In this document: piece after piece, positions 6,296-31,875 of the stretch
Numbering within the stretch: position 1 is the first letter of the stretch
Layout: the number at the start of each line of letters is the position of its first letter
DNA from: Oscillospiraceae bacterium
Lineage (GTDB): Bacteria; Bacillota; Clostridia; Oscillospirales; Oscillospiraceae
Direction: 5' to 3'
Assembly: GCA_902767395.1 (NCBI GenBank)
Contig: CACXHI010000017.1
Span: forward strand, 1-33,683
Length of the DNA: 33,683 nt
Position numbers and translations under genes: made by a program
The notes under the pieces: generated by a model
Seen by the model: only the letters and a program-made list of their open reading frames with translations
Told to the model about the DNA's origin: nothing
Database searches by the model: none

Positions 6296-7741
6296 TTAAT
6301 TTTTTCTCCAGATGCCTGGGGAGAGAGAAATCAGCATGGGATAAATCTCCAACCGGCCGAAGAGCATGGCAAAGGATAGCAGAACCTTGCAGACCGGCGA
6401 GTATCCGGCGTAGCTCGCAGCCGGGCCGACCAAGTTCAGGCCGGGACCGATGTTGTTGTAGCAGGCTGCGACGGCAGTAAAATTCGACACGCCGTCAAAG
6501 CCGGGCTGAAAAGAAAGCAGAAACCAGAATGCGACAAAAAGACCGACGTAAATTGCAAAATAGGTGCTGACGCTGATCAGCGTGCTGCTGTCCACCGGCC
6601 TGCCTTCAAAGCGCACCGAGGTCACGGCGCGGGGATGCAGAAGGTGGCGAATCTCCCGCCGAAAGGTCTTGAACAGCAATACCAGCCGCGACACCTTGAG
6701 CCCGCCTGCGGTGGAGCCGGCGCACGCGCCGATGAACATCAAAAGAACAAGAAGCATCCGGGACAGGGTTGGCCACGTGTCGAAGTTCGCGGTGGAATAG
6801 CCGGTCGTCGAGGAGATCGTGGTGACCTGGAAAAAGGCGTGCCGCAGGGATTCGGAGAAGCTGGGAAACAGCGGGCGGATGTTCCAGCAGATCAACCCGG
6901 TGGCGACGAGCACGATCCCCACGTAGGTCCACAGCTCCTCGCTGCGGAAGGCGGCCCGGAACCGCCGCATGATGAGCAGAAAAAAGAGGTTGAAATTGAT
7001 GCCGAAGAGCATCATAAACACCGCAATCACCCATTGGAGGTAGGGACTGTACCCGGCAAGCGAGTCGGCTTTGATTCCGAACCCGCCGGTGCCCGCGGTG
7101 CCGAAGGTGTGAACGGCGCTGTCAAACAGCGGCATTCCGCCTGCGACCAGAAGCAAAAACTCCAGAACGGTCAGGGCAATGTAGAGCAGATAGAGCAGCT
7201 TTGCGGTATCTCCGAGCTTGGGCGAGAGCTTGCCCATGGTGGGCCCGGGCATTTCCGCGCGCAGGATATGAATGGTCCGCCCGGAGAGATTAGGCATGAC
7301 TGCAACCATCAGCACCAGAACCCCCATACCGCCGATCCAGTGGGTGAAGCTCCGCCAAAAGAGCATCGAGCGGCTCATGACCTCCACGTCGGTGAGAATG
7401 GAGGCGCCTGTGGTGGTGAAGCCCGAGACGGTTTCAAAGAATGCGTCCACAAAGCACGGAATCTCACCGCTGAGCACGAAGGGCAGCGCGCCCAACGCGG
7501 AGACGATGACCCACGCCAACGCAGTGATGAGAAAGCCCTCGCGGGCATAGATTACCTGACTGTCCGGGCGGAATACCTTGATGAAGAGCAAGCCAAGCCC
7601 CAGCGAGAGGGCAATCGTCAGCAGCAGGGGGAGCTGCCCCCCATCCCAGTAGTAGACCGACACCGCAAGCGGAAGGGCAAGCACTGCGCCCTCCAGCAGC
7701 AGAATGCGGCCAATCGTATAGAAGACCATTTTCCGATTCAT
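6296..7741 (-). CDS. trkH: TrkH-family K+ uptake membrane subunit
   Basis: 481-aa polytopic ORF with repeated selectivity-filter-like motifs (SGFTTTGAS, GTAGTGGFG, TTISSTTGYS, GSTAGGLK) typical of TrkH/KtrB. AGGAGG upstream. Confidence 0.9.
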   Translation of the reverse strand: MNRKMVFYTIGRILLLEGAVLALPLAVSVYYWDGGQLPLLLTIALSLGLGLLFIKVFRPDSQVIYAREGFLITALAWVIVSALGALPFVLSGEIPCFVDAFFETVSGFTTTGASILTDVEVMSRSMLFWRSFTHWIGGMGVLVLMVAVMPNLSGRTIHILRAEMPGPTMGKLSPKLGDTAKLLYLLYIALTVLEFLLLVAGGMPLFDSAVHTFGTAGTGGFGIKADSLAGYSPYLQWVIAVFMMLFGINFNLFFLLIMRRFRAAFRSEELWTYVGIVLVATGLICWNIRPLFPSFSESLRHAFFQVTTISSTTGYSTANFDTWPTLSRMLLVLLMFIGACAGSTAGGLKVSRLVLLFKTFRREIRHLLHPRAVTSVRFEGRPVDSSTLISVSTYFAIYVGLFVAFWFLLSFQPGFDGVSNFTAVAACYNNIGPGLNLVGPAASYAGYSPVCKVLLSFAMLFGRLEIYPMLISLSPGIWRKN

Positions 7742-23242: not shown

Positions 23243-24067
23243 TTACGCATAGCTGTGAAGCCCCGGCAGAAGGGTGTTGACTCCCACGTAGGTGAACAGA
23301 ACGCAGACAAAACCGACCACGGCGAAGATGGCGGCGGTCCGGCCCTTCCAGCCCCGGCGAATCCGCAGATGCAGATAAGTGGCATAGATCAGCCACGTCA
23401 CAAGCGACCAGGTCTCCTTCGGGTCCCACGACCAGTAGGAGCCCCAGGCCTGTTCCGCCCAGATCGCCCCGGTGATGATCGTGAAGGTCAAAAACAGCAG
23501 ACCGAGACAGACGCTTCGGTAGGAGATCAGATCCAGCTTTTCTCTTGCTGGAATGTGCTTGTCCCAGAAGCCCTGATTCTTCATCCGCTCCCGGAGCAGG
23601 AAGATCAGCCCCAGAACCGCGCTGACGCCGAACGAGCCGTAGGCGATGATGGCAGTCGAGACGTGAAAGCCCAGCCAGCTCGAACGCAGAGCGGGCATCA
23701 AAGCCTTGACCTCCCGGCTCTGCATGGCGGCATAGCCGATCAGCAGCAGAATGATCGGGGCGGCGAAGGTGCCGATGACCGGAAATTTGAATCTCCAGAT
23801 GAACACAAGACTTACCAGACAAAGCCCCCACGCGAAGCTGGTGGCGAATTCATACTGGTTGGTCAGCGGAAGCCGCCCTGCGCCGATCCCGCGCAGAATG
23901 AGCGCCGCCGTGTGCAGCACAAGGCCGAGAATCTGAATTGCGGCGGCGGCCTTTCCCAGAGCTTCCTTCTTGACGGTGACGAACAGGAAATAAAAAACGG
24001 TTGCTGCAAAATACAGGCAGATCACGGCATAGAAGAAAATGCCTTCGAGATTCAGCAGATTCGTCAT
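23243..24067 (-). CDS. ccsA: System II cytochrome c biogenesis heme-handling protein CcsA/ResC
   Basis: 274-aa polytopic protein with the Trp-rich WWD-type motif WGSYWSWDPKETWSLVTW and the flanking His in YLHLR. Confidence 0.9.
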   Translation of the reverse strand: MTNLLNLEGIFFYAVICLYFAATVFYFLFVTVKKEALGKAAAAIQILGLVLHTAALILRGIGAGRLPLTNQYEFATSFAWGLCLVSLVFIWRFKFPVIGTFAAPIILLLIGYAAMQSREVKALMPALRSSWLGFHVSTAIIAYGSFGVSAVLGLIFLLRERMKNQGFWDKHIPAREKLDLISYRSVCLGLLFLTFTIITGAIWAEQAWGSYWSWDPKETWSLVTWLIYATYLHLRIRRGWKGRTAAIFAVVGFVCVLFTYVGVNTLLPGLHSYA

Positions 24068-24081
24068 AATCGTACCTTCTT

Positions 24082-25335
24082 TCAGCTTTGAACTTGGTTT
24101 GCCGCCTCGCGGACCTGCTCTGCGAACAGCGCTCCGCCCTTGGGACTGCTTCCGAAGACGGTCCAGCCTCCGTCCGCTTCCCGAATGGCCCAGACACGCC
24201 GGGTCTGGCAGTAGAAGGCGAGGAACAGTCCGAGCAGGGTGATCAGCCCGCCGGCAAGGGCAAGGCGGCTGAAGCGGTCTCGCTTCAACTGGATGAGCGT
24301 ATAGCTCTGCGGCTCGGAAAAGGAGACCTCATAGGGCAGGAAGTCCTGAATCGTCCCGCCCTCGGGCTGGACGTCCATGCCGTAGAACGAATCGTCAATG
24401 TAAATTTGGTAGGCATAGCCGGGGACGGAGCTGCCGTTTGCAGCCTTGTCATGGTCCGCAAGGACGGCGCGAAGCTGTACCTGCAGGGGGGTGTTCAGCA
24501 GGGAGATTTGCTCGCCCACACAGAGGACGGCCTCCTGCACGGTTTCCCCGTCCCTGCGCACGGTGAAATGCGCTGCGTCCCCGGTGGAGTTCTGATAGAG
24601 CTTGAAGCCGAACGCAGAACCGGGGTGGTTGACGCTGGCAGTCGCGTCCTGCGCGAGCACGTCGTCTTCGTTGGAGAGGTCGTACAGCGTCAGCGCCGTC
24701 GTGTACTGCGTCACGAAGCCGTCGGCCTCGCGCTGCAGCTGGAAATCGCGGATTTTCAGGGCGTATTCCGTCCCCTCGATCTGCTTGACCTGCCCGGGAA
24801 CGCCGTAGACGGTGTACTCCTCCTTGGTCATCTGACCCAGCACAAAGCCGAGAATCAGGAGCAGAATCCCGAGGTGGCAGACCCATGCGCCCCAGAGCCC
24901 GGCGCGGTGCTTCACCGCGATGCGCAGCGTCCGTCCCTCAGCGTCGGTGTGCTCGACGGCCTTCGGCATACGGAGCCGGGTCAGAACCGCGTCCGGGTCT
25001 TGGACGCCGCCGACGGTCACGGTCGGCGCCCCCAGATGGGCGGGGTCGCCGGCCTGACGGCTTCGGCGCAGAAGCTGGGGAAGACGGAGCAGGTTGCAGA
25101 GCAGAAGGTTGCCGCACAGAAAGCCCGTCAGCACCAGCACCCACCAGCTGTGGAACACGTCGTCCAGCCGCAGGGCGAGGATCAGACCCGCCGTGCGCTC
25201 CGAGTACAGCGCCGCGTATTCCTCATAGCGCAGACCCTGCGGCAGAAAGCTTCCGCCCGCGCAGGCCAGAGCGAGGACCACCAGAAGCCCAATGGCAAAC
25301 TGCATCGAGCCCAAGAATTTCCAGAGCTTTTTCAT
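24082..25335 (-). CDS. resB: System II cytochrome c biogenesis protein ResB/CcsB
   Basis: From ATG 25335 (AGGAG SD): MKKLWKFLGSMQFAIGLLVVLALACAGGSFLPQG, the typical ResB N-terminus, then a large extracytoplasmic domain and a C-terminal TM. The track start 25422 crosses the upstream hairpin. Confidence 0.88.
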   Translation of the reverse strand: MKKLWKFLGSMQFAIGLLVVLALACAGGSFLPQGLRYEEYAALYSERTAGLILALRLDDVFHSWWVLVLTGFLCGNLLLCNLLRLPQLLRRSRQAGDPAHLGAPTVTVGGVQDPDAVLTRLRMPKAVEHTDAEGRTLRIAVKHRAGLWGAWVCHLGILLLILGFVLGQMTKEEYTVYGVPGQVKQIEGTEYALKIRDFQLQREADGFVTQYTTALTLYDLSNEDDVLAQDATASVNHPGSAFGFKLYQNSTGDAAHFTVRRDGETVQEAVLCVGEQISLLNTPLQVQLRAVLADHDKAANGSSVPGYAYQIYIDDSFYGMDVQPEGGTIQDFLPYEVSFSEPQSYTLIQLKRDRFSRLALAGGLITLLGLFLAFYCQTRRVWAIREADGGWTVFGSSPKGGALFAEQVREAANQVQS

Positions 25336-25356
25336 CGTTGATCTCCTGTAAAGCGC

Positions 25357-25389
25357 AATAGCGGCAGAGCGTAACGCTCTGCCGCTATT
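25357..25389 (-). other. intercistronic 15-bp perfect hairpin between nrfA and resB
   Basis: AATAGCGGCAGAGCG / TAA / CGCTCTGCCGCTATT, located between the rnfB-nrfA stop (25419) and the resB start (25335). No U-tract follows on the minus strand. Confidence 0.6.
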
Positions 25390-25418
25390 GTATCGGTTTT
25401 TAGGAGAATTGTCAATTA

Positions 25419-26750
25419 TCAATTCTCGATGCCGAGCAGATCCATACCCTCGGTAATCTTGCTCTCGGCGGTGTCAAGACAGCGGGTGGCAAGCTCAGAG
25501 TTGTGCGCGCCCTCAGAGTTCTCCACATAGTCAAAGTCGAAGAACCACTGGGCCTCGCGGTAAAGCTTGCGAATGGCATTCAGCTCGTCCTCGGTCTTTG
25601 CTCCGGGCGCGCCCTCCTCGGCGGCCTTCACGGCGTCCGCCAGCGCGTCCTTGAACGCGGAGAGCTTGTTGCCGACCTCCGCCTCCCGGGCAGTGATGCG
25701 CTCCTGAAGCTTGTGTACCATTTCGACCATGTCGGTGTCGCCGTGGCACTGAACGCAGGTGGAGAGGAGGGTTTTGTCGTTGAGCGGGCTGTCGATGTAG
25801 TGGCTGTGATAGATCGTGCCGTCCTCCTCCTGCACGATGGCCATGTGGCAGTCGGCACAGCTCATGCCCATCGCGGCGTGCTTGCCGGAGAGATAGGTTT
25901 CCGTCTCAGGGTGCTGGGCCTTGAGCATGTGGGCGCCGGTGGAGGGCTGAATCCAGTCGTAGAAGCCCTGCTCGCCGTCCTTGTTCTCAATGCTGTCATA
26001 GTAGGCCAGAATCGCCTCGGGCGTCATGGCCTCCACACTGTCATAGGGCATCATGGTTTCGGCGTCGGCTACGGTGAAGTAGTACTCGATGTGGCACTGT
26101 CCGCAGGACAGAGTCGAGGGAGCGATGCGCTCCGCGTTTGCGCCAAGGGCCTTGTTCACGTAGGAATGCGTGATGGTAATCTGCCCCTTGTTTCCAGCGT
26201 CGTTGCCGTGGCAGGTGTAGCAGGAAACGCTCTCCTCCATCTTTCCCATGACCTCTTCAAAGTCCCACTTATAGACCTCCACGCCGTTGTCGTTGACCAG
26301 CTTGGCAAAGTTGGGGGTCTTGCAGGTCAGGCAGTTTGCCATTGGGTGCGGCCGCTCGGTTTTGCCCACGTCGGTCAGGCAGAACGCATGTCCGCGGGCG
26401 GAGCCGTAATCCCTGGCGAAGCCGTAGCCCTCGTAGACGTTGACGAGATACGGATCCTGCTCCAGATAGTCCGCCACCTCGGCGTTGTCGGCATTGGCCT
26501 TCATGCTCTTGGCGATGTAGGGGAAGACGCTCTCCCAGTCCGCGGCGTTCACAGTGCCGTCCTTGCTGCTGGCGACGGGGGCGTCCAGCGTGACGTACTG
26601 AATGTCGCTTCGCGTCAGGGGGCCGAGCTCGCCCCGGTTGCCCAGATGATACATGGTGTTGCCGTTCAGCACACCGCTCAGCAGCAGAACGGCGGCAGCG
26701 ATGATGAGCAGGGCGCACACCACTTTCCAAATAATTGTCTTCTTATCCAT
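25419..26750 (-). other. nrfA: NrfA (cytochrome c552 nitrite reductase) module with its own in-frame SD+ATG and signal-anchor helix
   Basis: AAAGGAG (26762-26756) lies 5 nt before ATG 26750. MDKKTIIWKVVCALLIIAAAVLLLSGVL is anchor-like. The rest aligns with NrfA hallmarks RDY..RGHAF, CxxCK, CGQCH(I/V)EYYF, LKAQHPE, CxDCHM. Confidence 0.85.
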
Positions 26751-27584
26751 CTTGTCTCCTTTTTGGCCGGAGGCCGTTCTTCCGGTGGGCAGGGTAGCTG
26801 CGGTGGTGATGACCTTTGCGGGGCATTTCTCAGCGCACTTGCCGCACTGCACACAGTTTTCGTAGTTGACGTGGGCCAGATTGGTCTGGACGGAAATGGC
26901 GTCATGCTCACACTGGCGGACGCAGAGAGAGCAGCCGATACAGCCGGCGGAGCAGACCTTTTTCACCTGCGGTCCCTTGTCGCGGTTGGAGCACTGAACG
27001 GCCACCTGCTTGCTTTCAGGCACCAGCTCGATCAGTCCCTTGGGACAGGCCTTGGCGCACAGGCCGCAGCCCACGCAGCGGCTGCGGTTCACCACAGCCA
27101 CGCCGTCGCGGACGGTGATGGCGTTTTCCGGGCAGACCTTGATACAGGAGCCGAGCCCCACGCAGCCGTAGTCGCAGTCGGTCAGGGCCAGGCCCGCGCG
27201 AACCGCGCTCGCGCAGTCCGCAATGCCAACGTAGTTGCCCTGGTTGGAGGTGAATTCGCAGGAGCCCTTGCACTTGACAAAGGCGATTTTCCGCGCAACG
27301 TCGCCTGCCTCGGTTCCCATGATCGAGCCGATCTTCTGGGCAACGGGCGAACCGCCTACGGGGCAGCCGTTCACCGGCGCCTCGCCCTTGGCAATGGCGG
27401 CCGCCATTGCGTCGCAGCCGGCGTAGCCGCAGGCGCCGCAGTTGTTACCGGGCAGAACCTCCCGGACGGCGGCCTCGCGCGCATCGACCTCGACGTAGAA
27501 TTTCTTCCCCATGAAGACCAGACCGGCGCCGACAATGATGCCGATTACGGTGATGACCGCAGTGGTAATCAGAATGAGATCCAT
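25419..27584 (-). CDS. RnfB-NrfA fusion: Rnf complex subunit B (polyferredoxin) joined in frame to pentaheme cytochrome c nitrite reductase
   Basis: One uninterrupted frame of 721 codons from ATG 27584 (TAAGGAGG SD; the TAA is the rnfA stop) to TGA 25419. The N-terminal 278 aa are RnfB: TM helix, CGACGYAGC...GCPVGG cluster, four CxxCxxCxxxCP-type motifs. Then come a 19-aa linker, a second TM helix and a 443-aa NrfA with CLTCK (26319-26333), CYTCH, CGQCHIEYYF, CADCH, CVQCH and MLKAQHPE. Confidence 0.85.
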   Translation of the reverse strand: MDLILITTAVITVIGIIVGAGLVFMGKKFYVEVDAREAAVREVLPGNNCGACGYAGCDAMAAAIAKGEAPVNGCPVGGSPVAQKIGSIMGTEAGDVARKIAFVKCKGSCEFTSNQGNYVGIADCASAVRAGLALTDCDYGCVGLGSCIKVCPENAITVRDGVAVVNRSRCVGCGLCAKACPKGLIELVPESKQVAVQCSNRDKGPQVKKVCSAGCIGCSLCVRQCEHDAISVQTNLAHVNYENCVQCGKCAEKCPAKVITTAATLPTGRTASGQKGDKMDKKTIIWKVVCALLIIAAAVLLLSGVLNGNTMYHLGNRGELGPLTRSDIQYVTLDAPVASSKDGTVNAADWESVFPYIAKSMKANADNAEVADYLEQDPYLVNVYEGYGFARDYGSARGHAFCLTDVGKTERPHPMANCLTCKTPNFAKLVNDNGVEVYKWDFEEVMGKMEESVSCYTCHGNDAGNKGQITITHSYVNKALGANAERIAPSTLSCGQCHIEYYFTVADAETMMPYDSVEAMTPEAILAYYDSIENKDGEQGFYDWIQPSTGAHMLKAQHPETETYLSGKHAAMGMSCADCHMAIVQEEDGTIYHSHYIDSPLNDKTLLSTCVQCHGDTDMVEMVHKLQERITAREAEVGNKLSAFKDALADAVKAAEEGAPGAKTEDELNAIRKLYREAQWFFDFDYVENSEGAHNSELATRCLDTAESKITEGMDLLGIEN
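26751..27584 (-). other. rnfB: RnfB module (N-terminal TM, RnfB-type Fe-S domain, 2 x 2[4Fe-4S] ferredoxin domains, linker)
   Basis: MDLILITTAVITVIGIIVGAGLVFMGKKF...LPGNNCGACGYAGCDAMAAAIAKGEAPVNGCPVGG..., then CVGLGSCIKVCP, CVGCGLCAKACP, CIGCSLCVRQCE, CVQCGKCAEKCP. There is no stop codon at its end. Confidence 0.85.
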
Positions 27585-27594
27585 GGCGCCCTCC

Positions 27595-28176
27595 TTAGAA
27601 CGACAGGCCGGAGAAGCCCATGAAGGCAATGGACATGAGCGCCGCTGCAATCAGTACGATGGGCGCGCCCCGCAGGGGAGCGGGGAGGTCGTCCTCGTTG
27701 ATGCGGCTGCGAATGCCCGCCAACAGGACAATGGCCAGAGTGAAGCCCAGCGCGGTGCCGAAGCCGGAGAGAACGGATTCGATGAAGTTGTAGCCGTTCT
27801 GCACGTTGGTCAGAGCCACGCCGAGCACGGCGCAGTTGGTGGTAATCAGCGGCAGGAAGATGCCCAGCGATTTGTAAACGGCGGGGGCAGCCTTTTTGAG
27901 GAACATTTCCACAATCTGCACCAGCGCCGCAATCACTAGAATGAAAACGATGGTCTTCATGAAATCGAGACCCAGCGGTTCCAGCACGTAGGTGTAGAGC
28001 AGGCTCGCCACGGCGGAGGCGATGGTAATGACGAAGATGACCGCGCCGCCCAGAGAAGCGGAGGCCTTCATTTGCTTGGATACGCCGAGGAAGGAGCAGA
28101 TGCCGAGGAACTGGCTCAGAACCACGTTGTTAATCAGCGCGCCGGAAACAATCAGCAGCAGCAAATTGTGATTCAT
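27595..28176 (-). CDS. rnfA: Rnf electron transport complex subunit A
   Basis: From ATG 28176 (GGAGG SD): MNHNLLLLIVSGALINNVVLSQFLGICSFLGVS..., the RnfA/NqrE signature; 193 aa with six TMs. Overlaps the rnfE stop by 4 nt. Confidence 0.92.
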   Translation of the reverse strand: MNHNLLLLIVSGALINNVVLSQFLGICSFLGVSKQMKASASLGGAVIFVITIASAVASLLYTYVLEPLGLDFMKTIVFILVIAALVQIVEMFLKKAAPAVYKSLGIFLPLITTNCAVLGVALTNVQNGYNFIESVLSGFGTALGFTLAIVLLAGIRSRINEDDLPAPLRGAPIVLIAAALMSIAFMGFSGLSF

Positions 28177-28853
28177 TTCGCCACCTCCTTCGAGGCCTCG
28201 CACTGAGAGGCACAGCTGGCGCAGCAGCCGTCGCAGCCGCTCTCTACCAGCTTGCGCTGGCGGGTCTTAATGCCGACGGCGTTCATAATGATGATGAACA
28301 GGGCAATGACCAGAAACGCGCCGGGAGGCTGGATGAAGATACCGATGGGCTCAACGGTCTGCGGCAGGATCTGCACGCCGAAGCAGGTGCCGCTGCCGAG
28401 AATCTCACGAACCGCGCCGGCCAGTGTCAGCGCGACGGTGAAGCCCAGTCCCATACCAATGCCGTCAAAGACGGAGAGCAGGGGCGTGTTCTTGTTGGCG
28501 TAGGCCTCGGCACGGCCAAGAATGATGCAGTTGACCACGATGAGCGGGATATAGATGCCGAGCGCCTCGTAAACCGAGGGCAGATAGGCCTCAATCAGAA
28601 GCTCCGTCACGGTGACCAGCGAGGCCACGATGACGATGTAGGCCGGAAGACGGACCTGATCGGGTATGACCTTTCGCAGCAGGGAGATGACCAGATTGGA
28701 CAGCACCAGAACCGCCAGCGTCGAAAGACCCATGCCAATGCCATTTGCGGCGCGGGTGGAGACTGCCAGCGTCGGACACATGCCCAGCATCAGGACCAGC
28801 GTGGGGTTTTCCTTGATGAGACCGTTGTACAGCCGTTCGAGATATTTGTTCAT
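28173..28853 (-). CDS. rnfE: Rnf electron transport complex subunit E (with Cys-rich C-terminal tail)
   Basis: GLIKENPTLVLMLGMCPTLAVST is the RnfE/NqrD signature; 226 aa. The tail GCDGCCASCASQC is at 28200-28235. Confidence 0.92.
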   Translation of the reverse strand: MNKYLERLYNGLIKENPTLVLMLGMCPTLAVSTRAANGIGMGLSTLAVLVLSNLVISLLRKVIPDQVRLPAYIVIVASLVTVTELLIEAYLPSVYEALGIYIPLIVVNCIILGRAEAYANKNTPLLSVFDGIGMGLGFTVALTLAGAVREILGSGTCFGVQILPQTVEPIGIFIQPPGAFLVIALFIIIMNAVGIKTRQRKLVESGCDGCCASCASQCEASKEVAK

Positions 28854-28854
28854 C

Positions 28855-30396
28855 TTACTCCCCCCTTATCTTTGTGTTGATGAAGTCGAGTCCTGCGTTC
28901 ACCGCGTTGACGACGGCTTTGGAGGTGATGGTCACGCCGGTGATGCCATCCACGTCCTCGCCCAGCGTCAGCTGGTCGGCCTGCTTGCCCGCGAACTGAT
29001 CCATGAATGCAGGCTCCCCGCAGAGCATTCCCTTGCCGGGCGTTTCGTGAAGCTCAGTGAAGGAGATGCCGTTGATCACACCGTCAGTACTGACGCCGAT
29101 GGAAAGGGTCACGTTGCCGTCATAGCCCTCGGCGGAGGTGACGGAGACCGCGTAGCCCACCACGTTTCCGGCGGCGTCCTTGCCAACCAGCGCGTCCTTG
29201 ATGTAGACCCGCCCGTAGCCGGTGCCGTAGACCTCGCCGCCGAGGAACTCCACCTTGTCGGAGAAGGACTCAAAGCTCTCCGCCTCGGGAAGCACCGTCT
29301 TGTAGGCAGCGGCGGCCGCCGCGTTTTTCTGCTCGTCGATGGTGGATTTGGTCATCGAGAAAACGCCGGACAGCGCCAGACCGGAGAGCAGCGCAATCAC
29401 GGACAGGGCGATCACGGGCTTGGGAATCCGCTGTGACAGCGGCTTCTTTGCCTCGCCGCTGCGTATCTTCAGCGCGCGCCTGCGGAAGGCGTAGGGCTTG
29501 TCAACAATGTAGGTGTCGATCAGCGGGACAAAGAGGTTTGCCACAATGATCGAGTAGCTGAACGAGTCGGCGGACTGGCCCTTGATGCGGAACAGAGCGC
29601 CGAGCACGCCGATCAGAACGCCGTAGAAGGTCTGACCCAGACGGCTCATGGGGGAGGTAACGTAGTCGGTGGCCATGAAGAACGCGCCGAGCACGACGCC
29701 GCCGCCGCACAGGTGGGCGGCAAGGAAGCCGGGGTCGAAGCCCTGCCCGCCGAAGAGGGCCATGAACAGGGTGAAGCCTCCGAGCACGGAGAAGCAGATT
29801 TGCCCGTGGATGATGTCAAAGGCCCAGAGCGCAAGACCACCGATCATCAGGCCGAGAATCGAGCCGCCGATGACGCCGTTGGCGCTGCCGAGGAACATCG
29901 AGGTGATGTCCACGACCCGCCCTGCGGCCAGCTCCGCACAGGGAGTGGCGGAGGCCACGCCGTCAATCCCATAGACCGTCATGGCGTTGGGGAAGGAGAT
30001 CAGCAGGAAGCACCGGGCAGCCAGAGCCGGGTTGACGAAGTTCTTGCCCAGACCGCCGAAGGCGCATTTGACGACCAGAATCGCGAAGATAGAGCCAATG
30101 ACCGGCGCGTAGAGCGGCGTTTCGGCGGAGAGCGTCAGCGCCAGCATCAGGCCGGTGACAGCGGCGGAGCCGTCCTTCCAGGAGTCCGGCTTCCCCGTGA
30201 GCTTATCGAAGACCAGCTCCGTGAGCACCGCCGTAATCACAGAGGTCAGAATCACCCAAAGGGCGTGCAAGCCGAAGGTGATAATGCCGATGACGGTGGC
30301 CGGCATCAGCGCCAGCAGAACCATCTTCATAATGAAGGAAGTGGACCAAATGTCTCTTACGTGAGGGCCGGCGGAAAGATTTAATCTCTGATTCAT
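28855..30396 (-). CDS. RnfD-RnfG fusion (both covalent-FMN subunits in one 513-aa ORF)
   Basis: Residues 1 to about 309 are RnfD/NqrB-like (LSAGPHVR, GLGKNFVNPALAAR, flavinylation-type SAT in GVASATP, FMATDYVTSP, VPLID). A basic linker (FRRRALKIRSGEAKKPLSQRIPK, about 29400-29470) and a TM helix follow, then an RnfG/NqrC FMN_bind domain ending DGITGVTITSKAV. No stop and no SD at the junction. ATGA overlap with rnfC. Confidence 0.88.
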   Translation of the reverse strand: MNQRLNLSAGPHVRDIWSTSFIMKMVLLALMPATVIGIITFGLHALWVILTSVITAVLTELVFDKLTGKPDSWKDGSAAVTGLMLALTLSAETPLYAPVIGSIFAILVVKCAFGGLGKNFVNPALAARCFLLISFPNAMTVYGIDGVASATPCAELAAGRVVDITSMFLGSANGVIGGSILGLMIGGLALWAFDIIHGQICFSVLGGFTLFMALFGGQGFDPGFLAAHLCGGGVVLGAFFMATDYVTSPMSRLGQTFYGVLIGVLGALFRIKGQSADSFSYSIIVANLFVPLIDTYIVDKPYAFRRRALKIRSGEAKKPLSQRIPKPVIALSVIALLSGLALSGVFSMTKSTIDEQKNAAAAAAYKTVLPEAESFESFSDKVEFLGGEVYGTGYGRVYIKDALVGKDAAGNVVGYAVSVTSAEGYDGNVTLSIGVSTDGVINGISFTELHETPGKGMLCGEPAFMDQFAGKQADQLTLGEDVDGITGVTITSKAVVNAVNAGLDFINTKIRGE

Positions 30397-30866
30397 TTCC
30401 TACCTCCTGCCTGCGCTGCCCGTTTCCGGGCCAGAATCTCCGCTTTGGTCTGCTTGAACATCTGCGTCAAGGGCCGCCGGGCCGGACAGATGTAGGTACA
30501 CGAGCCGCAGGCGATACATTCCAGACCGTAGAGCTTGGTTTCGTAGCGTTCCCAGTTCTTCATGTTGATGGCGTCGGCCATCAGCGCGGGAACCAGTCCG
30601 TTCGGGCAGATGGTGGAGCAGCGTCCGCAGTGCAGACAGGCGGTCATCTCTTTCTCCGCCTTCTCCACGCGGTCGTCTGCAAGGAGCGTGAGCGCGTTGG
30701 TGTTCTTCTGGATGGGGACGTCCAGACTTGCCACGGCAACGCCCATCATGGGGCCGCCGGAGAGCGCTTTTTTCGGCGTGCATCCGGCTTTGACGCCGCC
30801 GCTGGCCTCCAAAAGCTGCGCAAAGGTGGTGCCGTCTCTGGCAATGAAGTTGGAAGGGGTCTGCAC
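30393..30866 (-). CDS. rnfC: RnfC C-terminal fragment as called in the ORF track (2 x [4Fe-4S] ferredoxin part); alternative representation of the rnfC locus
   Basis: The track ORF starts at GTG 30866 with no convincing SD. The same frame is open back to the TAG at 30906-30908. Confidence 0.5.
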   Translation of the reverse strand: MQTPSNFIARDGTTFAQLLEASGGVKAGCTPKKALSGGPMMGVAVASLDVPIQKNTNALTLLADDRVEKAEKEMTACLHCGRCSTICPNGLVPALMADAINMKNWERYETKLYGLECIACGSCTYICPARRPLTQMFKQTKAEILARKRAAQAGGRK

Positions 30867-30905
30867 GGCCTCGCCGGTGACGGTGAGAACATGTTCAAAC
30901 AGCGG

Positions 30906-31748
30906 CTAGTTCCAAGCCACGGCCCGCCCGATTGCATAGGCCGTGCCCACGTTGAGCACGATGCAGCCGACGTCTGCCGGAAGCATGGACACGGGGAAGT
31001 CCACCCCCGCGACGACGCGGATCAGACTGCGTTCGCCGCCCTGCGGGTATTTCGTGTGCAGGGGCAGCACCCGCATCCGGCGCTTGCCGGCAATCGCCTG
31101 CCGCATCGCGGCAATGGCCTCGGGCTTGTTGTCCTCAATGCCGATGACGCACTCAGCGTTGTCAAAGAGTCGAAGCGCGAGCTCCAAACCCTCCACAATG
31201 CCCGCCGCGTGGCTGCGCATGAGCTGGTCATTGCAGGTGATGTAGGGCTCGCATTCCGCGCCGTTGGCAATGAGATAGCGAATCTGATCCGGCACCTTGG
31301 GTGCAAGCTTGACGTGCGTGGGGAAGCCTGCCCCGCCGAGACCGACGATTCCGGCGTTCCGAACGCGGTCAAGAACGTCCTGATTTGTGAGCTTGTCGAC
31401 CTCCTGCCGCTGTCCGAGTCCTTCAATGGGCGTGTACTGTCCGTCGTTTTCCACGACGACGCACTCGGACATGGTACCGGCGATGGTACGCCGCTTCTCG
31501 ACGGCCTTCACCGTGCCGGAGCAGGAGCTGATGACACAGGCGGAAACGAATCCGTCCGCCTCCGCGAGCTTTTGTCCCACCAGAACCGGATCATTTTTCT
31601 TGACAATGGCTTTTGCGGGTTTTCCGATGTGCTGTGCCAGGGGAAAGACCATCTCGCCGGGAGGCGGGTCGAAGCGATGCAGGGTTGCGTTCCTGCTCAG
31701 CTCCTTCCGTCCCTTGGGATGGACTCCTCCGCGAAAGGTTATGTTCAC
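30906..31748 (-). CDS. rnfC: RnfC N-terminal fragment (barrel-sandwich + NAD/FMN-binding part) ending at the in-frame TAG; alternative representation of the rnfC locus
   Basis: The track ORF 30906-31781 begins at a TTG without an SD. GTG 31748 has an AGGAGGG SD. Confidence 0.55.
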   Translation of the reverse strand: MNITFRGGVHPKGRKELSRNATLHRFDPPPGEMVFPLAQHIGKPAKAIVKKNDPVLVGQKLAEADGFVSACVISSCSGTVKAVEKRRTIAGTMSECVVVENDGQYTPIEGLGQRQEVDKLTNQDVLDRVRNAGIVGLGGAGFPTHVKLAPKVPDQIRYLIANGAECEPYITCNDQLMRSHAAGIVEGLELALRLFDNAECVIGIEDNKPEAIAAMRQAIAGKRRMRVLPLHTKYPQGGERSLIRVVAGVDFPVSMLPADVGCIVLNVGTAYAIGRAVAWN

Positions 31749-31846
31749 TGTGATCGCCCTCCTGGATTGGATGAAAAACAAATTCTGCCGGCGTCATAAA
31801 ATACGGTATGTTATGAATAAAAATGCCGACAGTCCTCCTAACATAT

Positions 31847-31875
31847 ATGATAGCACAGAAAAAATAAAAAGGCAA
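31847..31875 (-). promoter_or_regulatory. sigma-A-like promoter for the rnf-nrfA-ccs operon (TTGCCT-N17-TATCAT, TGn extended -10)
   Basis: On the minus strand: TTGCCT 31875-31870, 17-nt spacer ending TGC, TATCAT 31852-31847. This lies in the AT-rich divergent intergenic region and leaves a leader of about 90 nt before GTG 31748. Confidence 0.4.

Follow-up and report, generated by a model that had tools for sequence, protein, structure and literature searches.

The DNA analysed here, which we call the window, is a stretch of 33,683 nucleotides that makes up contig CACXHI010000017.1 of the Oscillospiraceae bacterium assembly GCA_902767395.1. On its minus strand, the list of open reading frames (ORFs) contains an uninterrupted frame of 721 codons that runs from the ATG at position 27584 to the TGA at 25419 and joins rnfB, the gene of an iron-sulfur subunit of the Rnf complex, to nrfA, the gene of a pentaheme nitrite reductase. 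The fused gene is the fifth gene of a tight operon on the same strand, with the order rnfC-rnfD::G-rnfE-rnfA-rnfB::nrfA-resB-ccsA. A first-pass annotation, made from the letters alone, had described this single frame, and all of its coordinates hold. The parts of the fused gene are:

25419 to 27584, minus strand: fused rnfB::nrfA ORF of 721 codons, identical to the database protein P0130
26805 to 27584, minus strand: RnfB module, residues 1 to 260, with the first transmembrane helix (TM1, 27513 to 27581), the FeS domain and four ferredoxin-type clusters
26751 to 26804, minus strand: linker of 18 amino acids, TTAATLPTGRTASGQKGDK, which holds the nrfA Shine-Dalgarno (SD) sequence AAAGGAG (26756 to 26762)
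26748 to 26750, minus strand: internal ATG, the start codon of nrfA in every relative with separate genes
26667 to 26732, minus strand: second transmembrane helix (TM2), the N-terminal signal-anchor helix of NrfA (VVCALLIIAAAVLLLSGVL), with a hydropathy peak of 3.0 and an AlphaFold2 helix at residues 281 to 302
25449 to 26540, minus strand: NrfA catalytic domain, defined by PF02335, the alignment with E. coli 1gu6 and the heme and active-site motifs

The open frame extends further upstream to a TTG at 27650; since homologues begin at the same MDLILITT, the ATG at 27584 is the correct start. An ORF of 706 amino acids on the opposite strand of the fused gene is what chance would produce at 60% G+C. 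The minus-strand frame has a G+C content of 0.82 at third codon positions, and every domain match falls there.

Profile searches agree with the domain content that had been read from the letters, an RnfB followed by a complete pentaheme NrfA. In the RnfB half, Pfam finds the FeS domain PF04060 at residues 44 to 76 (50.7 bits against a cut-off of 23) and four Fer4 stretches, and the RnfB models of NCBIfam span residues 3 to 259; TIGR01944 reaches 104.2, above its cut-off of 68.7, and the equivalog-level RnfB models score under their cut-offs. The solved RnfB chains of the Rnf complexes of Acetobacterium woodii (9eri_B, 1.9e-70 over residues 2 to 260) and Clostridium tetanomorphum (7zc6_B, 1.3e-69) align with this half. 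What defines an RnfB is thus present: the N-terminal membrane helix with PF04060, several [4Fe-4S] domains, and rnfC, rnfD, rnfG, rnfE and rnfA encoded alongside, both in the window and in the relatives. In the NrfA half, PF02335 (Cytochrom_C552) covers residues 349 to 712 (E = 1.7e-77, 261.7 bits against a cut-off of 24.1), and the NCBIfam NrfA models span residues 345 to 711. The motifs that had been pointed out before are all found by motif scan and alignment: the heme motif CLTCK (residues 418 to 422, positions 26319 to 26333), four CxxCH motifs (CYTCH at residue 455, CGQCH at 494, CADCH at 576 and CVQCH at 610), and the RGHAF, CxxCK, CGQCH(I/V)EYYF (CGQCHIEYYF in the window) and MLKAQHPE blocks of the Arg/Tyr/His and calcium sites, which match E. 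coli NrfA 1gu6. By this alignment, the active site is intact. The equivalog cut-offs of NCBIfam are missed by this half (NF008339, 222.1 against 595; TIGR03152, 182.5 against 692.5); judged from its sequence, it is a genuine member of the NrfA family but of a divergent subfamily.

Hydropathy reveals exactly two hydrophobic helices, at residues 2 to 24 and 285 to 306. This makes the previously proposed topology, with the iron-sulfur domains inside and NrfA outside the membrane, coherent, and the System II genes resB and ccsA do lie next to the fused gene. An AlphaFold2 model of low confidence (alignment of 33 sequences, mean predicted local distance difference test score (pLDDT) of 60.5, poor RnfB half), used solely for viewing the helices and the unstructured linker, has two helices and no secondary structure in residues 254 to 280. 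A helix that resembles a signal anchor precedes the NrfA domain, and resB and ccsA follow directly downstream; this suggests that NrfA is exported, that its anchor may stay uncleaved and that heme is attached at the CxxCK motif. Public annotation names the fused proteins merely nitrite reductase.

Loss of the rnfB stop codon joins the two genes

The fusion recurs in independent assemblies, which bears out that it is encoded in real DNA. A search across 5.8 billion proteins identified fused homologues at 93, 84, 67, 64 and 65% identity (P0001, P0002, P0005, P0006 and P0008), on contigs that come from different samples and different assemblers. In a cluster look-up, the window allele P0130 was found again with one or two substitutions on other contigs (P0124 on a contig of 73 kb, P0133 and P0127), and the fused allele P0137 of the P0002 lineage was present on 19 contigs. 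Fused lineages beyond that of the window are P0001, P0002/P0137, P0005, P0006, P0156 and P0162, and the fused contigs L133 and L134 came from an independent metagenome scan that started from RnfB.

In most relatives the two genes are separate. A scan of one genome per GTDB species with the NrfA alignment as the query gave 80 loci, nearly all of them in metagenome-assembled genomes (MAGs) from the ruminant gut, the taxonomy labels of which were taken at face value. rnfB and nrfA are separate in all 78 species representatives that have both genes, and in 34 of 36 metagenome contigs. The gap between them has a median of 15 nucleotides and does not exceed 30 nucleotides in 63 of the 78 genomes, and the rnfB stop codon frequently lies within the nrfA SD sequence (TAAGGAG). 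Moreover, in 22 of the 78 genomes the rnfB stop codon and the nrfA ATG share a frame without a further stop between them, so that one base change separates these genes from fusion. Since the genes abut, with the rnfB stop in or near the ribosome-binding site of nrfA and often in frame, a single base change fuses them. Exactly this difference is seen, in the clade of the 705-residue proteins, between the fused locus L005 and the split locus L066: they are 98% identical over 9.5 kb, and their junctions differ by one base, AAA versus TAA (gcggagAAAggagag versus gcggagTAAggagag). Split-gene relatives exist at 98 to 100% identity in the flanking DNA, individual 90% clusters contain fused alongside split alleles, and the two kinds of locus are intermingled in the NrfA tree. 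In the clade of the 705-residue proteins, a Lys stands at the former stop position in four of four different linkers. A single ancient fusion in this clade is ruled out, as TAA and AAA alleles interleave on the tree.

The fused ORF thus consists of two genes, rnfB and nrfA, from a conserved operon of eight genes, joined by a missing rnfB stop codon. The fusion arose at least three independent times, the clade of the window counted, and fused alleles occur side by side with unfused ones in the same species. We conclude that the fused ORF represents a stop-loss allele that is real, has arisen repeatedly and seems to be tolerated, and not a fixed new protein family: the architecture is not common to the orthologues of the clade, as it would be for a stable domain fusion. 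The first-pass annotation had taken the architecture to be possibly undescribed and had named separate genes in all close orthologues, together with separate polypeptides in proteomics, as what would speak against it. Nearly all relatives are indeed split, yet fused lineages recur. The fusion is real, and our full-text literature search (open-access papers and bioRxiv) returned no published description of an RnfB-NrfA fusion or of an rnf-nrfA operon, an absence that is not proof; what did not stand is a fixed architecture, the allele being sporadic and recurrent.

Three forms of the junction occur in the window's own clade, that of the 721-residue proteins: (i) In the plain split form (L004, L010), which has no linker extension, rnfB stops soon after a conserved KVIT and ends with KVITPPVEP or KVITPPAEP. 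(ii) The fused form is found in the window, L008 and L009; the stretch of the fused chain that spans the junction reads ..TASGQKGDKMDKK.. (iii) The duplicated form (L011, L001 to L003) carries a diverged tandem copy, 112 to 113 nucleotides long and about 75% identical, of the unit of SD sequence, ATG and anchor helix between the linker and nrfA (at about 7605 to 7716 in L011 and about 530 to 641 in L001; likewise in L002 and L003). Here, RnfB gains its own C-terminal copy of the NrfA anchor helix, which ends with LNGSV before the stop codon, and nrfA restarts separately. Across rnfA, rnfB and nrfA, the fused locus L008 and the duplicated locus L011 show an identity of about 100% outside a junction tract of about 130 nucleotides, which in L008 resembles the window. 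Two junction haplotypes are therefore circulating in one species background. Fused and duplicated-helix haplotypes are each present in several lineages of the clade, a pattern that points to probable recombination of the junction haplotypes.

The internal start of nrfA has been kept throughout. The stand-alone NrfA proteins P0007 and P0009 (84 and 82% identity; starts MDKKTI and MDKRTI, in the order listed) begin precisely at the Met of the junction, and in both loci a separate rnfB lies directly upstream. AAAGGAG followed 5 to 7 nucleotides later by ATG is retained in all fused alleles, and among those compared we found none without it. In the duplicated-helix alleles, the first SD-ATG copy, which is no longer needed, has decayed to ..aaggccaagccgGAC.. 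The decay of the superfluous copy suggests that selection continues to maintain the SD-ATG in the fused genes. Any fusion protein is probably accompanied by free NrfA.

The rnf-nrfA-ccsBA operon and its spread

The other genes of the operon in the window are:

30393 to 31781, minus strand: rnfC, with RnfC_N, Nuo51 flavin mononucleotide (FMN)-binding, SLBB and two [4Fe-4S] domains (Pfam)
28855 to 30396, minus strand: rnfD::rnfG, one ORF of 513 amino acids, with PF03116 at residues 7 to 302 and PF04205 at residues 424 to 503
28173 to 28853, minus strand: rnfE, PF02508, E = 6e-67
27595 to 28203, minus strand: rnfA, PF02508, E = 6e-61, likely true start at ATG 28176
24082 to 25335, minus strand: resB/ccsB, System II cytochrome c biogenesis, PF05140, E = 3.9e-47, likely start at ATG 25335
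23243 to 24067, minus strand: ccsA/resC, System II heme lyase subunit, PF01578, E = 4.4e-55

The likely start of rnfA overlaps the rnfE stop codon as ATGA. The product of rnfD::rnfG is an RnfD membrane domain followed by an extracytoplasmic FMN-binding RnfG domain, with candidate flavinylation sites at the motifs VASATP and DGITGVTITS.

The main novelty lies one level above the fusion and is robust: it is a conserved rnf-nrfA-ccsBA operon without NrfH nearby. Among the 80 loci from the GTDB genomes, each one of sufficient length has the eight-gene operon rnfC-rnfD::G-rnfE-rnfA-rnfB-nrfA-resB-ccsA, and its hosts are Clostridia, Lachnospiraceae, Oscillospiraceae, Solobacterium (Erysipelotrichales) and seven Spirochaete MAGs. 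RnfA identity stays at 80 to 89% across the host groups while the flanks are unrelated, which suggests transfer as a cassette. The operon was also recovered from the RnfB side: nrfA is the next gene in 36 of the 39 contigs with an RnfB of at least 66% identity. A cytochrome c gene directly after rnfB, inside the rnf operon, is thus found in these 36 contigs and in about 78 genomes. Relatives with an RnfB below 66% identity have the same Rnf, including the D::G fusion, and lack nrfA as well as resB and ccsA. Because these distant relatives carry Rnf alone, we regard nrfA-ccsBA as an add-on to a housekeeping Rnf.

A partner of NrfA was sought within about 10 kb to either side of each locus. A second ORF with at least two CxxCH motifs, such as NrfH or NrfB, was present neither in the window nor in the 20 kb of L005 nor in the local flanks of any of the 89 loci. 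Conserved flanking genes (a regulator, ApbE or hcp) were likewise absent from these flanks, where all-against-all clustering gave only alternative-frame shadows of the genes in the operon and scattered ABC transporters, and Pfam detected no ApbE in the rest of the window.

Several loci depart from the common arrangement. In L090 (10001 to 12613), rnfB is followed by the gene of P0010 (whose cluster at 90% identity has 124 sequences), a protein of 870 residues composed of a membrane anchor, an FMN_bind domain and two NrfA domains, and then by a gene with a NusG_II domain, resB and ccsA. Tandem NrfA-NrfA proteins of 774 to 817 residues with a single anchor helix are encoded in the slot after rnfB, as in L027 (9983 to 12433) of a Solobacterium MAG; P0003, P0004 and P0011 to P0013 are such proteins. 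NrfA is homodimeric in solved structures, and the tandem proteins look like covalent dimers. In L120 (4771 to 5397) and L121 (2664 to 4385), NrfA is replaced after rnfB by a membrane-anchored FMN_bind protein with two FMN_bind stretches and the motif DVITGASLKFS. It may be that the site after rnfB generally accommodates extracytoplasmic electron acceptors. In L092 (4040 to 4147), rnfB is followed just by an ORF of 36 amino acids that corresponds to the NrfA anchor helix (MDKRTIVWKLICSVLIVAAAVLLLSGVLGGDVIYMG) and then by a simple repeat of the GGGATCA type and unrelated genes; either nrfA has been lost here and this ORF is what is left of it, or the contig is chimeric. The Eubacteriaceae MAG RGIG8324 has the rnf-nrfA-ccs operon twice, on different contigs (L056 and L065); this could be a true duplication or reflect mixed strains in the bin. 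RnfD::G is a single polypeptide of 505 to 528 residues in most of the loci L010 to L159 (also at 7139 to 8725 of L005), including rnf operons without nrfA; in the more distant human-gut relatives L163, L165 and L169, rnfD and rnfG are separate genes. Finally, rnfC of the window is interrupted by an in-frame TAG (30906 to 30908, minus strand) that splits RnfC into pieces of 291 and 157 amino acids and replaces a Glu codon (GAG/GAA) conserved in 30 of 32 motif-matched loci, the window counted. The TAG could be a true nonsense mutation or an error of sequencing; if it is genuine, this Rnf has a truncated NADH-side subunit.

Possible electron transfer from Rnf to NrfA

We think it probable that rnfB and nrfA, joined here by stop loss, belong to an operon in which electrons from Rnf reach NrfA, and that the fusion acts as a tether and not as a wire. 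The N-terminus of the fused chain would lie outside and TM1 would lead inward to the cytoplasmic iron-sulfur domains of RnfB; a flexible Lys-rich linker would be followed by TM2, the uncleaved signal anchor of NrfA, and by the pentaheme NrfA outside, with its hemes attached by the co-encoded CcsBA. In solved Rnf and Nqr structures, the RnfA/E cluster takes electrons across the membrane to RnfG, the FMN of which faces outward. In the system proposed here, electrons from reduced ferredoxin would take the route through RnfB and the RnfA/E cluster, and those from NADH the route through RnfC and RnfD, both to the extracytoplasmic FMN of RnfG; from there they would pass to the hemes of NrfA, where nitrite would be reduced to ammonium. 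NrfA would be held at the membrane beside Rnf by its own N-terminal helix. Since TM2 carries no cofactor, the link between RnfB and NrfA would not conduct electrons. That the link is tolerated implies that the C-terminus of RnfB and the N-terminus of NrfA are both cytoplasmic and that the NrfA helix is uncleaved. Such a system would be a quinone-independent electron sink and nitrite detoxifier driven by ferredoxin or NADH; its net energy conservation would be uncertain because electron export opposes the potential built by the ion pumping of Rnf. This idea is supported by the recurrence of the RnfB-NrfA fusion, the conservation of the operon, the lack of a second multiheme ORF in the inspected flanks, the intact active site of NrfA and the coherent topology. 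Other arrangements point the same way: the FMN_bind-NrfA-NrfA, NrfA-NrfA and anchored FMN_bind proteins encoded after rnfB, and the RnfD::RnfG fusion.

Several observations weigh against this proposal. The evidence for transfer from RnfG to NrfA consists of gene order, the lack of a nearby NrfH and the partner fusions, and the partner search covered flanks of about 10 kb, so that a donor encoded elsewhere, or menaquinone, may serve NrfA. The fused state is rare, with none among the 78 species representatives and two among the 36 metagenome contigs. As all fused alleles keep the internal SD-ATG, none proves that the fused chain alone supplies NrfA activity, and the decay of the unneeded copy in the duplicated-helix alleles suggests that the retained one is still used; the polypeptide of about 80 kDa is a putative working form. 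In the window, the premature TAG in rnfC may have broken the NADH branch, or it may be an error of the contig. Finally, the low mean pLDDT of the model counts on the same side. More tentatively still, and with slightly more doubt than conviction, one may go further and regard Rnf and anchored NrfA as a ferredoxin/NADH:nitrite supercomplex, independent of quinone and NrfH, in which the RnfG flavin feeds the NrfA hemes and which has spread as a cassette among ruminant-gut Clostridia, Erysipelotrichales and Spirochaetes to become a major route of nitrite ammonification in the ruminant gut; the fusions would then be snapshots of subunit contacts.

It is possible, though in our view unlikely, that the stop loss is real and neutral or mildly harmful, that the long chain is a by-product of read-through which is poorly inserted, degraded or inactive, that NrfA is made solely from the internal SD-ATG, and that RnfB comes from the fused chain or is not made; the fusion would then be uninformative on function. 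The retention of SD and ATG in all fused alleles fits this explanation, as does the occurrence of the rare fused alleles beside unfused ones in backgrounds that are 98 to 100% identical outside the junction; since a single mutation would suffice for fusion in 22 of 78 genomes, new fused alleles must be appearing all the time. An inactive chain, however, would mean the loss of RnfB, an essential subunit of Rnf, yet fused alleles have persisted over a nucleotide divergence of about 15% (window versus L009) and dominate one lineage (P0002, P0136, P0137, P0138 and P0140; at least 25 contigs). The linker has stayed in frame despite accumulated substitutions, and in L011 and L001 RnfB keeps its C-terminal copy of the helix after the genes have split again.

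A second alternative concerns the operon as a whole: NrfA and CcsBA could simply ride on rnf expression and receive electrons from a donor elsewhere, a quinol dehydrogenase or another cytochrome, while Rnf acts only as a ferredoxin:NAD+ oxidoreductase. We consider this improbable. The eight genes travel together across phyla while their flanks vary, rnfB and nrfA are translationally coupled with their median gap of 15 nucleotides, NrfA is found fused in one and the same slot to RnfB or to an FMN_bind domain, the inspected flanks of all 89 loci lack a multiheme partner, and resB and ccsA are gone wherever nrfA is gone. What speaks for co-regulation is that nrfA is missing from the distant relatives (RnfB below 66% identity), whose Rnf is of the same type, D::G included, so that Rnf looks like a housekeeping system, and that the partner search was confined to local flanks. 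Finally, that an assembly or sequencing artefact deleted the rnfB stop codon can be rejected almost with certainty: separate genes in close relatives, the suspicious TAG in rnfC of the window, and the L011-type allele, which amounts to the fused one plus a tandem duplicate of 112 to 113 nucleotides that an assembler could in principle collapse, would be in its favour, but the same fused junction is found in megahit k87 and k141, SPAdes NODE, JGI, NCBI and Logan records, the two L011 copies are just about 75% identical so that the fused junction is not their simple collapse, and the AAA allele is common to L005 and L006 from two samples.

The proposed transfer from Rnf to NrfA differs from what is established for either partner. 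As in NrfHA of Wolinella and Desulfovibrio and NrfABCD of E. coli, there is a pentaheme catalytic subunit with a CxxCK heme, the Arg/Tyr/His and calcium blocks and a presumed extracytoplasmic location, and a cytochrome c biogenesis system is encoded alongside. Unlike in those systems, no dedicated partner, be it NrfH, NrfB or NrfCD, is encoded nearby in the window, L005 or the 89 loci; NrfA is self-anchored, encoded within an rnf operon and member of a divergent subfamily (222 against 595), and its donor would be a flavin, that of RnfG, and not a quinol-oxidising cytochrome. With the Rnf complexes of A. woodii (9eri) and C. tetanomorphum (7zc6), the operon shares the six subunit types, the clostridial order C-D-G-E-A-B and an RnfB that aligns over its full length; unlike there, RnfD and RnfG are one polypeptide, the operon runs on into nrfA-resB-ccsA and, in the fused allele, RnfB extends into a second helix and NrfA. 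The nearest functional precedent is MmcA of Methanosarcina acetivorans, a heptaheme cytochrome of the OTR family that is encoded by the rnf operon's first gene and relays electrons from Rnf to methanophenazine or Fe(III) (PMC11024163). In both cases the rnf operon includes the gene of a multiheme c-type cytochrome that accepts electrons from Rnf at the outer membrane face, a transfer that for NrfA is suggested by the genes; MmcA, however, is archaeal and has no membrane helix, whereas NrfA is a bacterial terminal reductase. A similar relay logic has been described for flavinylated systems: according to Meheust et al. 2021 (PMC8238504), FMN-binding domains flavinylated by ApbE-type enzymes relay cytosolic electrons to extracytosolic reductases, with cytochrome and FMN modules being interchangeable, and the systems include partial NQR/RNF-like clusters with RnfD-NqrF fusions and NapH-like clusters with NirS. 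A text search of that survey turned up no coupling of a complete Rnf to NrfA. Finally, the Gram-positive, quinone-free anaerobe Natranaerofaba carboxydovora has no NrfH; its NrfA carries one membrane helix, and the donor in the membrane is unknown (PMC8359318). Unlike in the operon described here, its nrfA adjoins napAGHDF and not rnf, and no link to Rnf was proposed (PMC8359318).

The fused allele is a pointer to a widespread NrfH-less rnf-nrfA-ccsBA module. NrfA is thought to require a quinol-oxidising cytochrome partner, NrfH or NrfBCD, and Rnf to move electrons between ferredoxin and NAD alone. Direct supply of NrfA by Rnf, if real, would call for an extension of both accepted views: Nitrite would give fermentative gut anaerobes, which are probably free of quinones, an electron sink of the respiratory type, and Rnf would be a general transmembrane electron exporter in bacteria, as MmcA suggests for Methanosarcina. 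Feeding of nitrate to ruminants is used to cut methane emission, and the build-up of nitrite makes it toxic. As the operon is common in ruminant gut genomes, its hosts could set the rate of nitrite clearance. The natural fused, split and duplicated-helix alleles are ready material for the question of whether RnfB and NrfA sit together.

Further features of the window

The closest genome is a sheep-rumen Oscillospiraceae MAG with about 88% nucleotide identity. The rest of the window contains housekeeping genes, such as those of Spo0A, Trk and BacA (Pfam), and the presence of Spo0A indicates a spore-forming Firmicute. Two non-coding features accompany the operon:

31847 to 31875, minus strand: candidate for a sigma-70-like promoter, TTGCCT-17-TATCAT with extended TG, a pattern match from a consensus scan
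25355 to 25391, no strand assigned: perfect inverted repeat of 17 bp in the 83-nucleotide gap between the nrfA stop codon and the resB ATG

The candidate promoter lies in an AT-rich gap upstream of rnfC. The inverted repeat is no clear terminator, because just three T follow the stem on the coding strand, and it is overlapped by a near-consensus TTGACA-17-TACAAT (25415 to 25387, minus strand). This region could form a hairpin that stabilises the mRNA or provide an internal promoter for the ccs genes.

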